Assembly (NCBI RefSeq): GCF_017348835.2
Contig: NZ_CP071375.1
Reading direction: 5' to 3' (one strand)
From: Escherichia coli
GTDB lineage: Bacteria; Pseudomonadota; Gammaproteobacteria; Enterobacterales; Enterobacteriaceae
DNA length: 64,000 nt
Made by a program: the position numbers. This document shows positions 18,201-24,200 of this stretch, piece after piece (the stretch's first letter is position 1; every line of letters begins with the position of its first letter).

Positions 18201-21200
18201 CAACACTTCGCCTACCAGTTCAGGATCGAGCGCCGAGGTAGGTTCATCAAACAGTAAAACTTCCGGTTCCATCGCCAGCGCCCGCGCGATAGAAACACGC
18301 TGTTGCTGACCGCCGGAAAGATGCACCGGATATTTCCCCTGTGCACGTTCGTCTATCCCAACTTTTGCCAGATACTTCACCGCCCGCTCGCGCGCTTCCT
18401 GCTTGCTCAGGCCCAACACCTGAATCGGCGCTTCCATGACGTTTTCCAGCACCGTCATATGGCTCCAGAGATTGAAGTGCTGGAATACCATCGTCAGGCG
18501 TGTGCGCAGTAAGCGCAGTTGATTTTTATCGGCGACTTTGAGTTGACCGTCTTTGCCGCGCACCAGATTGATCGTCTGGCCATTGACCACGATCGACCCT
18601 TCACTCGGTTTTTCGAGGAAGTTAATGCAGCGCAGAAAGGTACTTTTCCCCGATCCCGACGATCCGATGATGCTTATGACATCTCCGGCATTCGCTTGCA
18701 GTGACACCCCTTTCAGCACTTCGTGTTCGCCATAGCGTTTGTGCAAATCGATAACGTTTAATTTATTCTCGGACATCGTATTCTCAGTGCGTTGAAGAAG
18801 GTTTCACATGCTGCAACCAGCGTTTTTCCGCTCTGCGAAAGAGGCTGATCAGGACATAAGAGATGATTAAATAGAGCACCGCGGCAATGCCGAAGGCGGT
18901 AAAAGGTTGATACGTGGCGGCGTTAATATCGCGGGCTATTTTCAGCAGATCCGGCACCGTGGCAGTAAATGCCAACGCAGTAGAGTGCAGCATCAGGATC
19001 ACTTCGTTGCTGTATGCCGGTAACGCAATACGCAGCGCAGAAGGCAAAATAATGCAGCGATACATTTTAAAAGTCGAGAAGCCATAGGCTCTGGCGGCTT
19101 CAATTTCCCCATGCGGAACCGAACGGATTGCCCCAGCAAAAATCTCGGTAGTGTAAGCGCAGGTGTTAAGCGTCAGCGCCAGCACGGTACAGTTCAGGCC
19201 ACTGCGGAAAAAGGCGTTAAGAAACTCGGTCCCCTTAACAATCTCCAGCGTATACATGCCGGAATAGAACACCAGCAACTGAACATACAGCGGCGTACCG
19301 CGAAAAATATAGGTAAATAACCAGATTGGAAACTGGATGTATTTATTACTGGAGACACGACCAATCGCCAGAAACAGCGCCAGGACTCCGCCTATCACTA
19401 CCGACAAAATAAGCAGCCACAGAGTGATCGCCACACCAGTAAAGCGATAACCGTCGGTCCACAGCAGCGGTTTCCAGTATTCATGTAAGATTTCGATCAC
19501 AGGTCAGCCCTCTTCACACCCACGGAGTAGCGGCGCTCAAGGAACAGCAGCACACCATTGGAAACGGTGGTGAAAACCAGGTAAATCACGCCACAGACGA
19601 TGGCGAAATAGAACGGTTCCCAGGTACTTTTGCCTGCCAGCTGCGTGGCTTTGACCACATCTTCCAGGCCGAGTAACGAAACCAGTGCGGTAGATTTGAG
19701 GATCACCTGCCAGTTGTTGCCAATGCCTGGCAGGGCGTAACGCATCATCGCCGGAAACATGATCCGCCGAAACACTTGCCCACGAGTAAAACCGAACGCC
19801 GTCGCCGCCTCTATATGTCCTTTCGGCACTGCCATAAAAGCACCACGGAACGTTTCGGTAAAATAAGCACCGTAGATAAAACCGAGAGTGATAATACCAG
19901 CGACCATCGGATCGATATCAATCTGCCCGACGCCCATCGCCTCCGTCACCGTGTTTAGCGCAATCTGCAAACCGTAGAAAATCAGCAGCATCAACACTAA
20001 GTCCGGCACGCCACGAATCAGCGTGGTGTACCCTTCGAAAATCAGCCCCGAAAGCCGATTTTGAGAGAGCTTACCGCCAGCGCCAATTAAACCGATGATT
20101 ACAGCGAGCACTACAGAGCTGATAGCCAGCTCCAGCGTGACGAGCGCACCCTGTAAAATAACACCTGAAAACCCATACAACATGCAGCCTGTCCTGTCGT
20201 GTGTGGTGAATTACCGCCTCTTGTCTCCCTCCGGTTACCCGAAGGGAGCGGGCTTTCTTTCACCGATGGCGATTAGCCACCATAAACATCAAAATCGAAG
20301 TACTTTTTCGCTAATTTCTCGTAAGTACCGTCAGCGCGCATTTCGGCAAAGGCTTTGTTCAGTGCCTCGCGCAGTTCGTTATCTTCTTTACGTAGGCCCA
20401 TGCCGGTCCCTACGCCAAACAGTTTTTCATCTTTAACAGACGGGCCACCGAATTTGTAATCTTTACCGACAGGTTGTTTAAGGAAACCTTCGCTGGCAGC
20501 GACCTCATCCTGGAACGCGGCATCAATACGTCCGGCAGTCAGGTCAGAATAAATGTTGTCCTGCCCCTGATACGAGACGATTTCAATGCCTTTTGGTGCC
20601 CAGTGTTCGTTACCGAACGTCTCCTGGGTGGTGCCCTGCAATACGCCTACCCGTTTGCCTTTCAGCGACTCGACTGTCGGCTGAATGTCAGAATTTTTCG
20701 CCACCACCAGACGAGAATCGGCAGCGTACAGTTTGTCGGTGAAGGCTATTTCTTGCTGACGTTTTTCCGTAATGGAAAGCGATGACATGATGGCGTCAAT
20801 CTTCTTCGCTTTTAAGGACGGGATTAACGCATCCAGCGGATTTTCGACAAACGTACATTGCGTATTGATGCGTTTGCATAATTCCTTTGCCAGATCGATA
20901 TCGAAGCCAACCAGTTCGCCTTGTGAATTTTTTGATTCAAATGGCGCATAGGTCGGGTCGGTACCGATGCGGATGTTTTGCGGAATCGCAGCAAATGCCG
21001 CAGTTGCGCTGGAGAAGGCCAGAACCAGAGAGAGCGATAGCACCAGTTTTTTCATAATGTCCTCAACTGACAGTCTTTTTATAGGGAATATTTACAGGTT
21101 TGTTACACTTATCGTGCCATAAAATTGACCATCAAGGCAAAATATCCCGCCCCGTTAGACGTATTATTTTTCATTAAAAATGCTTAAGTATGCATTTCAA

Positions 21201-24200
21201 TGCACCACAATAGTGCAACAAACCTGGCGTGCACCATGATGATCATTCCATCAGGTACAGCTTCCCTGCGACGTATCAGTCACCGTAGACATTAAAGTCA
21301 AAATACTTTTTCGCCATCTTGTCGTAGGTGCCGTCCTGACGCAGCTCGCCAAGCGCCTTATTGAAGGCAGCCGTCAGTTCAGCATCATCTTTACGTAGCC
21401 CTACACCGGTGCCGTCACCGAAGTATTTTTTGTCTTTCACTGATGAGCCAGCAAAGGCGAAGTCTTTACCAGCAGGTTGCTTGAGGAATCCTTCGCTGGC
21501 AGCAACTTCATCCTGCAGTGCAGCATCCAGACGTCCTGCAGCCAGATCGGAATAGACCAAATCCTGGTTGGCATAGGCCACCACATCCACACCTTTGCTA
21601 CGCCAGGTCTCGTTAGCGTAAGCTTCCTGGGTTGATCCCTGCAGCACACCAACATGTTTACCTTTCAGTGAATCCAGCGTTGGCTGAATCGGCGAACCTT
21701 TGGCGGCAATCAAACGAGAATCTGCGGCGTACAACTTGTCGGAGAAAGCAATCTCCTGCTGACGTTTATCGGTAATGGAGAGCGACGAAATAATGGCGTC
21801 GATTTTTTTCGCTTTCAGTGAGGGGATCAGCGCGTCAAAGTCACTGGCAACCCAGGTACATTTCACCTGCATCCGTTTGCACATCTCGTTACCGAGATCG
21901 ATATCAAAGCCAACAAAATCACCTTTAGCATCTTTCGACGAGAACGGCGCATAGGTGGTATCGGTTCCGATACGTACCGTCTCCGGTAGCGCCGCATAGC
22001 TGGAAGCCGCTGCGGAGAGACCGACTAACAAAGACAGAGCGAGAATCGACTTCTTCATACATAACCCTCAAGTAAAAATGGCTTTTTATGTTGTGTATTG
22101 TGTTGTGTGTTTGCAGGCTCTTTCATGCAGGTCTTATGCCATCTTGACGACAACAATAACATTCAACGTTAAATATGTTAATAAGACGTTGCATTATTGT
22201 CCTAAAGTTGAAGATAGCAGGTATAGCGGTTGAATCGCAGCGTTTCGATTGAATGGCAGAAACAAAATGTCGAGGATTTGATCGCGGTTGCAAAATTGCC
22301 CTGAAACAGGGCAACAGCGGAGTTATGCGCCCTGCCAGCGGGCAAAGAGATCTTCAGGAAGGGTTATCGCAAACTGGTCAAGAACACGATTAACCGTCTG
22401 ATTTATCACATCATCAAGGGATTGCGGGCGATGATAAAACGCCGGAACGGGAGGCATAATCACCGCACCGATTTCTGCTGCCTGCGTCATTAAACGCAGA
22501 TGGCCTAAGTGCAATGGTGTTTCACGCACGCAGAGCACCAACGGGCGACGCTCTTTCAGCACAACATCTGCCGCACGGGTCAGTAAGCCATCAGTATAGC
22601 TATGGACAATGCCGGACAGGGTTTTGATTGAACAGGGTAAAATCACCATCCCCAACGTCTGGAAAGAACCGGAAGAGATGCTGGCGGCAATATCGCGCGC
22701 ATCGTGCGTGACATTGGCTAACGCCTGCACTTCGCGCAGGGAAAAATCCGTTTCGAGGGATAAGGTCTGGCGCGCCGCCTGGCTCATTACCAGATGCGTT
22801 TCGATATCTGTGACATCGCGCAGAACCTGTAATAAACGCACGCCATAAATCGCGCCGCTGGCACCGCTGATGCCCACAATAAGTCGTTTCATAAATAGTT
22901 GCCCTGTCAGACTTGCAGGCAGACTTTGCAGGATTTCGGCGGGAGTTGCAAGTCAGGGTGCCAGATCGGCACCCTGAGCGAAGGCATCATCCTTCGTTAT
23001 GCATTTCGAGATTTTCCACTTCGTTCTGACGTTGCACTGCTTTGGCGTCGTCATTACGTAAAGTATCGAGGAAATCGAGGTAGCCCTGATCAACATCTTT
23101 GGTGACGTAGACGCCGTTGAACACCGAGCATTCAAACTGCTGGATATCCGGGTTTTCAGCGCGAACGGCTTCGATCAGATCGTTCAGATCCTGGAAAATC
23201 AACCCGTCAGCACCGATGATCTGGCGAATTTCATCTACTTCGCGACCGTGAGCGATCAGTTCCGTAGCGCTCGGCATATCGATACCGTAAACGTTCGGGA
23301 AGCGAATTTCCGGTGCCGCAGAAGCGAGGTACACTTTCTTCGCTCCGGCTTCGCGTGCCATCTCGATAATCTGCTCAGAAGTGGTGCCACGGACGATGGA
23401 GTCGTCGACCAGCAGGACGTTTTTATCGCGGAACTCGGCGCGGTTGGCGTTCAGTTTACGGCGCACGGACTTACGACGCAGCTGCTGGCCCGGCATGATG
23501 AAGGTGCGGCCAACATAGCGGTTTTTAACGAAGCCCTGGCGGTACGGTTTGCCCAGAATACGCGCAATTTCCAGCGCGATATCACACGAGGTTTCCGGGA
23601 TCGGGATCACCACGTCGATATCCAGCTCTTCCCATTCGCGGGCAATTTTCTCGCCCAGCTTCGTGCCCATATTCACACGCGCGCTGTAAACGGAAATTTT
23701 GTCGATGAACGAGTCCGGGCGAGCAAAGTATACATACTCAAACAGGCACGGATTGCTGACCGGATTGTCAGCACATTGACGGGTAAACAACTGCCCTTCT
23801 TCAGTGATGTAAATCGCTTCGCCAGGCGCGACGTCACGCAGGAAATCAAAGCCCAGTGTATCGAGCGCAACGCTTTCGGAAGCGACCATATATTCTGTGC
23901 GGTTCTCGTCAATATCACGTTTTCCCAGTACCAGCGGACGAATACCGTTAGGATCGCGGAAAGCAACCATACCGTGGCCGATAATCATCGCCACACAGGC
24001 ATACGCGCCGCGGATTAAGCGGTTTGTAGCAGCGATGGCGGCGAAAATGTTGTCGGCTTCCAGCGGGTAGTGGCGGAAGTTGTCCAGCTCGCTGGCGAAG
24101 ATATTAAGCAGAATTTCCGAGTCGGAAGTGGTGTTGATGTGGCGGCGTTTTTCTTCAAACAGTTTTTTACGCAACTCGTGAGCGTTGGTCAGATTGCCGT

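Follow-up and report, generated by a model that had tools for sequence, protein, structure and literature searches.

The genes argT and hisJ of Escherichia coli, which encode two periplasmic binding proteins and precede the permease genes hisQ, hisM and hisP, were analyzed in a stretch of 64,000 nucleotides from contig NZ_CP071375.1 (NCBI RefSeq assembly GCF_017348835.2), here called the window. We conclude, with a probability of about 0.97, that the region is the argT-hisJ-hisQ-hisM-hisP cluster of Escherichia coli, in which argT and hisJ are ancient tandem paralogues with a shared permease. The arrangement is already known and fully described, and nothing in the window departs from it. In the biology of ATP-binding cassette (ABC) importers it is one of the founding examples of two binding proteins that serve one membrane complex, and a textbook illustration of how a gene duplicates in tandem and its copies come to prefer different ligands; to recognize the pair here is a sanity check only.

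Gene content and identity of the cluster

The cluster is transcribed from right to left, so that "downstream" of hisJ means lower window coordinates, and all the genes and sequence elements of the cluster described below are on the minus strand. Two intact open reading frames (ORFs) of 260 codons plus a stop, each with a 22-residue signal peptide, were identified as argT (21276..22058), for the lysine/arginine/ornithine-binding periplasmic protein (LAO), and hisJ (20273..21055), for the histidine-binding periplasmic protein. They are separated by a spacer of 220 nt without an ORF of note. Next on the same strand are hisQ (19497..20183) and hisM (18784..19500), which encode the permease subunits, and hisP (18003..18776), which encodes the ATP-binding subunit. 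The hisM gene starts with GTG and shares 4 nt with the end of hisQ. The HisQ and HisM translations have EAA-type loops (EAATAFGF and EAARAYGF, respectively) and that of HisP contains Walker A, Walker B and the signature LSGGQQQR. Two EAA-loop permease genes and one ATPase gene are thus found directly downstream of hisJ, as in a HisQMP2-type importer. A consensus scan placed a terminator-like hairpin with a T-run (10-pair stem, 7 GC pairs) after hisP, at 17967..17996, marking the end of the operon. An earlier note on this DNA had described two 260-codon genes at 20273-22058, in tandem and with hisQMP downstream of the pair; the reading frames, the absence of any gene between argT and hisJ and the order of the three genes that follow all agree with that description.

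Curated protein models distinguish the two binding proteins clearly. The hisJ ORF scored 599.4 bits against the NCBIfam equivalog NF011965 (cut-off 459), covering positions 1-260 of 260, and 434.7 bits against the ArgT model NF011586, which is under the cut-off of 440. Conversely, the argT ORF scored 583 bits over its full length against NF011586 and 425.2 bits against the HisJ model, under the cut-off of the latter. The cut-offs for the other three proteins were all exceeded as well (HisQ, NF011714, 479 bits against 319; HisM, NF011651, 465 bits against 306; HisP, NF007908, 574 bits against 466). Among solved structures, PDB 2M8C is identical to mature HisJ over all 238 residues and 1HPB/1HSL differ from it at 4 positions, and the Salmonella LAO structures 1LAF/2LAO match ArgT over its full length with scattered substitutions (E 6e-147). 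RefSeq annotation of strain PE164, in which a 4.5-kb stretch is 100% identical to the window, and of K-12 (b2306-b2310) agrees on all five names, argT, hisJ, hisQ, hisM and hisP. The solved structures and curated models settle the identity of the genes.

The cluster was found in 5424 of 5426 complete E. coli genomes when the 4.5-kb stretch was required at a coverage of at least 80%. As separate observations on this collection, one of the 5426 genomes gave no match at all to the argT-hisJQMP stretch, and two plasmid records carry a relative of the stretch that is 60-80% identical to it.

Duplication of argT and hisJ

The ArgT and HisJ translations align over their full length without a gap, with 175 of 259 positions identical and 217 of 259 positive (BLASTP, E 8e-134), which upholds the previous claim, to be checked by such an alignment, that the two genes are homologous along their whole length. 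At the DNA level, 532 of 783 positions (67.9%) are identical, compared with 25.0 +/- 1.5% (maximum 30.5%) in 1000 shuffles.

Related loci were collected by scanning a species-representative genome collection once with a degenerate pattern for the shared motif RIGTDxTYAPF, which returned at least 120 stretches. The sample is biased by this pattern, and the counts that follow are among the matches listed. After adjacent stretches were joined, both genes were found in at least 81 loci in addition to the window, and wherever the flanks were present the order ubiX-argT-hisJ-hisQ-hisM-hisP was invariable. All two-gene loci with a taxon name below phylum belong to the Enterobacteriaceae (Citrobacter, Salmonella, Klebsiella, Enterobacter, Kosakonia, Cedecea and others); two further two-gene loci are metagenome bins labelled Proteobacteria alone. 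In at least 11 loci (L020, L024, L032, L038, L054, L062, L066, L080, L090, L109 and L123), which belong to Erwinia, Pantoea, Winslowiella, Chimaeribacter and Sodalis, there is just one binding-protein gene, and in the 7 of these that contain both flanks this gene is located directly between ubiX and hisQ in every case. Across the fetched loci, identity is 77-100% between each copy and its E. coli orthologue and 63-73% between each copy and the paralogue. The single-copy protein is approximately equidistant from the two (72% to HisJ, 73% to ArgT), and the two clades are 69% identical to each other. In neighbour-joining trees of 26 genera, ArgT and HisJ each formed a clan in 500 of 500 bootstraps, and the single-copy proteins did so in 24 of 500. 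The identities had suggested that the single-copy proteins are outgroups to both clades; with clan support of this order, that placement is no more than tentative.

A second copy could in principle have been brought to its place beside the first by horizontal transfer, and not by duplication in place. The tree leaves some room for such an origin, as the single-copy loci of Erwiniaceae, Chimaeribacter and Sodalis did not group as one clan, and a single duplication in an ancestor of the Enterobacteriaceae is therefore not proven. Nevertheless, we regard transfer as very improbable. The two genes are alike in G+C content (48.9% and 51.1%), length, frame and signal-peptide design, and upstream of each there is a sigma54-type element and a ribosome-binding region TTGAGG(G/A)T. 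A profile of the region upstream of argT matches the region upstream of hisJ at the corresponding place in 18 of 26 genera, as against 2 of 130 shuffles. In addition, both clades have as their nearest relatives the single-copy genes found at the same position between ubiX and hisQ.

In-place duplication could itself be recent, or the similarity of the two genes could be maintained by ongoing gene conversion, and some local features would be in keeping with this. Residues 81-120 are 88% identical in protein, with DNA identity there of up to 78%, and of the 173 codon pairs that specify the same amino acid, 82 use the identical codon, slightly more than the 72 +/- 5 obtained by random permutation of synonymous codons (a value of 82 was reached in 72 of 2000 permutations). 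However, the synonymous identity is flat, approximately 47% in every segment along the gene and 17 of 35 in the most conserved protein stretch, and the longest identical DNA run between the genes is just 14 nt. Identity by codon position is 75%, 85% and 43% for first, second and third positions, respectively. The low identity at third positions and the near-chance matching of synonymous codons imply that synonymous sites are virtually saturated, and nothing points to recent gene conversion. The complete separation of the ArgT and HisJ clans in the bootstraps, and the closer identity of each copy to its own orthologue than to its paralogue, argue in the same direction. On these comparisons, recent duplication or conversion is refuted for practical purposes, and the duplication of argT and hisJ is old.

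Nothing contradicts the interpretation of the cluster given here; three points limit it. First, relative to the split from Erwiniaceae, the duplication may have occurred in the stem lineage of the Enterobacteriaceae or may be older, with subsequent losses, and the tree is compatible with both. Second, a simple sigma70 scan gave one weak site, upstream of argT, and did not locate the sigma70 promoter reported for hisJ in the literature. Third, an Rfam scan of 17600..22500 at E <= 1 returned no RNA family.

Ligand specificity and the shared permease

Residues of the ligand pocket are numbered here as in the PDB entries, where the mature residue is the precursor residue minus 22. Asp11, Tyr14, Ser69, Ser70, Ser72, Arg77, Leu117, Thr121, Gln122 and Asp161 are common to ArgT and HisJ; among them, Asp11, Ser69, Ser70, Ser72, Arg77, Thr121, Gln122 and Asp161 are conserved pocket residues of the LAO and HisJ structures. 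At position 52 of the mature chain, the HisJ of the window has Leu and its ArgT has Phe. The same residues were found throughout the matches listed: Phe in 85 of 85 ArgT proteins, Leu in 80 of 80 HisJ proteins, and Phe in 10 of 10 single-copy proteins. In the LAO structure, Tyr14 and Phe52 stack on either side of the ligand (PMC3102756). HisJ binds histidine with a dissociation constant of 0.11 uM and arginine with one of 10 uM, and the ligands of ArgT are lysine, arginine (1.5 uM) and ornithine (PMC6640053). The Phe52/Leu52 difference fits these published affinities, and the substrate divergence that the earlier note had attributed to the pair is thereby given a residue, one that in LAO stacks on the ligand.

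Both binding proteins associate with HisQMP2 (PMC6640053, PMC3102756). The shared-receptor model was established in Salmonella (Higgins & Ames 1981, as cited in PMC3971661), and for the use of one complex by both proteins PMC3971661 also cites Speiser & Ames 1991. The shared permease has its origin in the work of Kustu & Ames (1973) and of Higgins & Ames (1981), as cited in PMC6640053 and PMC3971661. The sharing of HisQMP2 by the two proteins is thus established in the literature, by published genetics and biochemistry; what the DNA gives is their adjacency alone. In the scheme that we favour, ArgT and HisJ are both secreted, two-lobed periplasmic binding proteins, with ArgT (LAO) capturing lysine, arginine and ornithine, and HisJ capturing histidine and, weakly, arginine. 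Either liganded protein docks on the single HisQMP2 membrane complex for ATP-driven import. Specificity would differ by way of a small number of residues in the pocket, above all residue 52 (Phe in ArgT, Leu in HisJ), and the surface facing HisQM would have remained similar in the two.

It is extremely improbable that either gene is in decay or redundant, without a function of its own, for although overlapping cationic amino acids are bound by both proteins (PMC6640053, PMC3102756), both reading frames are intact and above the curated equivalog cut-offs, both genes are retained in those 5424 of 5426 E. coli genomes and in all untruncated Enterobacteriaceae loci among the matches listed, residue 52 is fixed and different between the two clades, and the control regions of argT and hisJ, described below, are distinct. 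Frequent loss or frameshift of one copy was not seen among these matches; the exceptions are stops in one copy at loci L018 and L084 and an ambiguous base at L032.

Control region of argT

Each gene had been said to possess its own upstream region, and this is the case: 264 nt precede argT (22059..22322) and 220 nt precede hisJ, each with regulatory motifs of its own. At the distal end of the argT region, after the ubiX stop codon, is a hairpin with a T-run at 22292..22315. A predicted sigma54-type motif, TGGCATAAGACCTGCAT (GG-N10-GC; TGGCAY-N5-YTGCW), is located at 22125..22141, 83 nt before the ATG. The pattern search that found it gave 5 matches in the window where 0.8 were expected, and 78 of 78 loci among the matches listed have the pattern upstream of argT. 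Its sequence in the window exactly matches the argT site that sigma54 binds in Salmonella LT2, as identified by chromatin immunoprecipitation (PMC3844500), and a peak for RpoN at argT-hisJQMP has been obtained by genomic systematic evolution of ligands by exponential enrichment (gSELEX; PMC8743547). Dependence of argT transcription on RpoN/NtrC is described in PMC6640053, PMC8743547, PMC4958250 and PMC3844500.

Between this motif and the start codon, at 22088..22113, the argT leader contains a C/A-rich segment, CAAACACACAACACAATACACAACAT, which as read from the sequence is of the type bound by the G/U-rich R1 seed of the small RNA GcvB. The segment is conserved across genera in the fetched loci, and argT is a target of GcvB R1 that was verified in Salmonella and is conserved in E. 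coli (PMC9299463). Control of argT would accordingly combine a sigma54/NtrC promoter with a C/A-rich leader targeted by GcvB.

The argT-hisJ spacer

The spacer between the paralogues (21056..21275) is the control region of hisJ. In the direction of transcription it contains, as read from the sequence, an imperfect hairpin after the argT stop codon (21230..21260), an NtrC-like dyad, TGCACTATTGTGGTGCA, at 21201..21217, two ARG-box-like sequences at 21179..21196 and 21160..21176, and a sigma54-like element, TGGCACGATAAGTGTA, at 21104..21119, approximately 60 nt before the hisJ start. This layout recurs across genera in the fetched loci. In the literature, hisJ has ArgR boxes, is driven by sigma70 and is weakly repressed by ArgR (PMC6640053), and hisJ control in our scheme would consist of ArgR boxes together with a promoter of its own.

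The sigma54-like element of the window has GT instead of GC at position -12. Among the matches listed, GC is found at this position in 47 of 82 loci, and the canonical version, TGGCAC-N5-nnGC, occurs in most Enterobacteriaceae (L004-L123). We considered whether GT represents the loss in Escherichia of a promoter kept elsewhere. This idea was dropped: GT at -12 is also found in genuine sigma54 promoters, for example those of pspA and hydN (PMC3844500), and the canonical element of Salmonella hisJ is reported as predicted, not active (PMC3844500 Additional file 2). We do not class the hisJ element as an active sigma54 promoter; it may be left over from a promoter that duplicated along with the gene.

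A repeat search also revealed a 15-nt inverted repeat in this spacer (span 21095..21226), with arms CAGGTTTGTTGCACT at 21212..21226 and AGTGTAACAAACCTG at 21095..21109 that are 102 nt apart and complementary at 14 of 15 positions. One arm overlaps the NtrC-like site and the other overlaps the -12 part of the sigma54-like element. The spacer folds strongly relative to shuffled sequences (z -5.1) because of this repeat. In a duplex test of the arms, z was -5.2 for the window and -4.7 to -6.3 for other Escherichia, whereas the family-wide median over 74 spacers was -0.7, with only 12 spacers below -2. Pluralibacter-like genera have different arms at the same place, with compensatory changes and a z of approximately -3. 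The candidate explanation of the fold as an RNA structure conserved throughout the family was rejected, as the repeat sequence differs outside Escherichia and the family-wide median is so close to zero. In the form found in the window, judged by these duplex tests, the inverted repeat is an Escherichia-specific feature and not a conserved element. It is doubtful that the repeat has a function in coupling or insulating the expression of the two paralogues. If it did, it would close a stem-loop of approximately 130 nt around the hisJ control region in read-through argT-hisJ transcripts, or would act as a structure at the DNA level.

The hisJ-hisQ spacer

The 89-nt spacer between hisJ and hisQ (20184..20272) has a predicted folding energy of -34.7 kcal/mol (z -4.15). 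It contains a 10-bp hairpin, CTCCCTTCGG-GTAA-CCGGAGGGAG, at 20225..20248, with a GNRA loop and no U-tract. Among the fetched loci the spacer varies from 58 to 210 nt, and a strong GC-rich hairpin is found between hisJ and hisQ in every genus, with a sequence that differs by genus. The longer, palindrome-rich spacers of Salmonella and Citrobacter were read as repetitive extragenic palindromic (REP)-type. From what is known of the Salmonella his transport operon, we infer that the hairpin could be an element that protects the 3' end or causes partial termination, and that it could raise hisJ above hisQMP.

Just before the hisQ ribosome-binding site, at 20195..20208, is a C/A-rich stretch, CACCACACACGACA, which is a candidate GcvB-type site and is conserved across genera in the fetched loci. 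GcvB represses hisQ via its R1 seed, through the hisJ-hisQ region (PMC9299463). The hairpin after hisJ and this second GcvB site would together tune the expression of hisQMP to a level below that of hisJ.

Comparison with known systems

In K-12 MG1655 (b2310-b2306) the genes, their order and strand, the spacer lengths and the regulatory motifs are the same as in the window. Over the 2.2 kb from the ubiX stop to the hisQ start, approximately 2% of positions and a single 1-nt indel differ; these are strain-level substitutions only, and there are more of them in argT than in hisJ.

The argT-hisJQMP region of Salmonella enterica, the histidine transport operon with the dhuA/argTr promoters, has the same gene order (loci L047 and L067), and its proteins are 97-98% (HisJ) and 91-92% (ArgT) identical to those of the window. 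The argT sigma54 motif is identical, and in the hisJ control region the NtrC-like, ARG-box-like and sigma54-like sequences are arranged as in the window, but there are some distinct differences. The sigma54-like element of hisJ has GC at -12 in Salmonella and GT in Escherichia; the hisJ-hisQ spacer is approximately 180 nt in Salmonella, with palindromic units that we read as REP-type, whereas that of E. coli is 89 nt with its single GNRA-loop hairpin; and Salmonella lacks the long-range inverted repeat of Escherichia.

The single binding-protein form (ubiX-binding protein-hisQMP) shares its flanking genes with the cluster in the window and differs from it in having one binding-protein gene instead of two. 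In 10 of the 11 loci the ATG is preceded, at a distance of 65-89 nt, by a sigma54 motif, a hairpin precedes hisQ as in the window, and residue 52 is Phe, like that of ArgT. The comparison across genera has added details, namely a gene order that is fixed in the Enterobacteriaceae, a single Phe52 copy in the neighbouring families sampled, and a sigma54-like element before both copies, and it leaves the overall picture unchanged.

The artJ/artPIQM system of E. coli also has two paralogous polar-amino-acid-binding proteins, ArtJ and ArtI, which are thought to serve one ArtQMP2 (PMC6640053). The Art models are the next-best NCBIfam matches for all five proteins of the window (approximately 178-191 bits, as against approximately 590). 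The art genes are at another locus, outside the window, and are arranged differently.

Other features of the window

A tRNA-Arg(CCT) gene is located at 61057..61131 on the plus strand. In PE164, whose collinearity with the window near this gene was checked via the tRNA position alone, the region beyond the matching tRNA-Arg contains a truncated DUF4942 gene, a major facilitator superfamily (MFS) transporter, a truncated PfkB kinase and an IS3 transposase, and looks like an island at a tRNA gene.

The gene for the recombination-promoting nuclease, rpnB (16904..17806, minus strand), has an in-frame TGA at 17687..17689 where K-12 has TGT (Cys40). It spans 903 nt, compared with 891 nt in K-12, and in strain PE164, where the gene is identical, RefSeq lists a pseudogene.

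In the interval between cvpA and dedD, a 91-nt unit is repeated three times in tandem at 25194..25462, with the copies matching at 98%. By its sequence, the unit resembles palindromic units of the REP type or of the bacterial interspersed mosaic element (BIME) type. The array yields three spurious overlapping ORFs with the same peptide.

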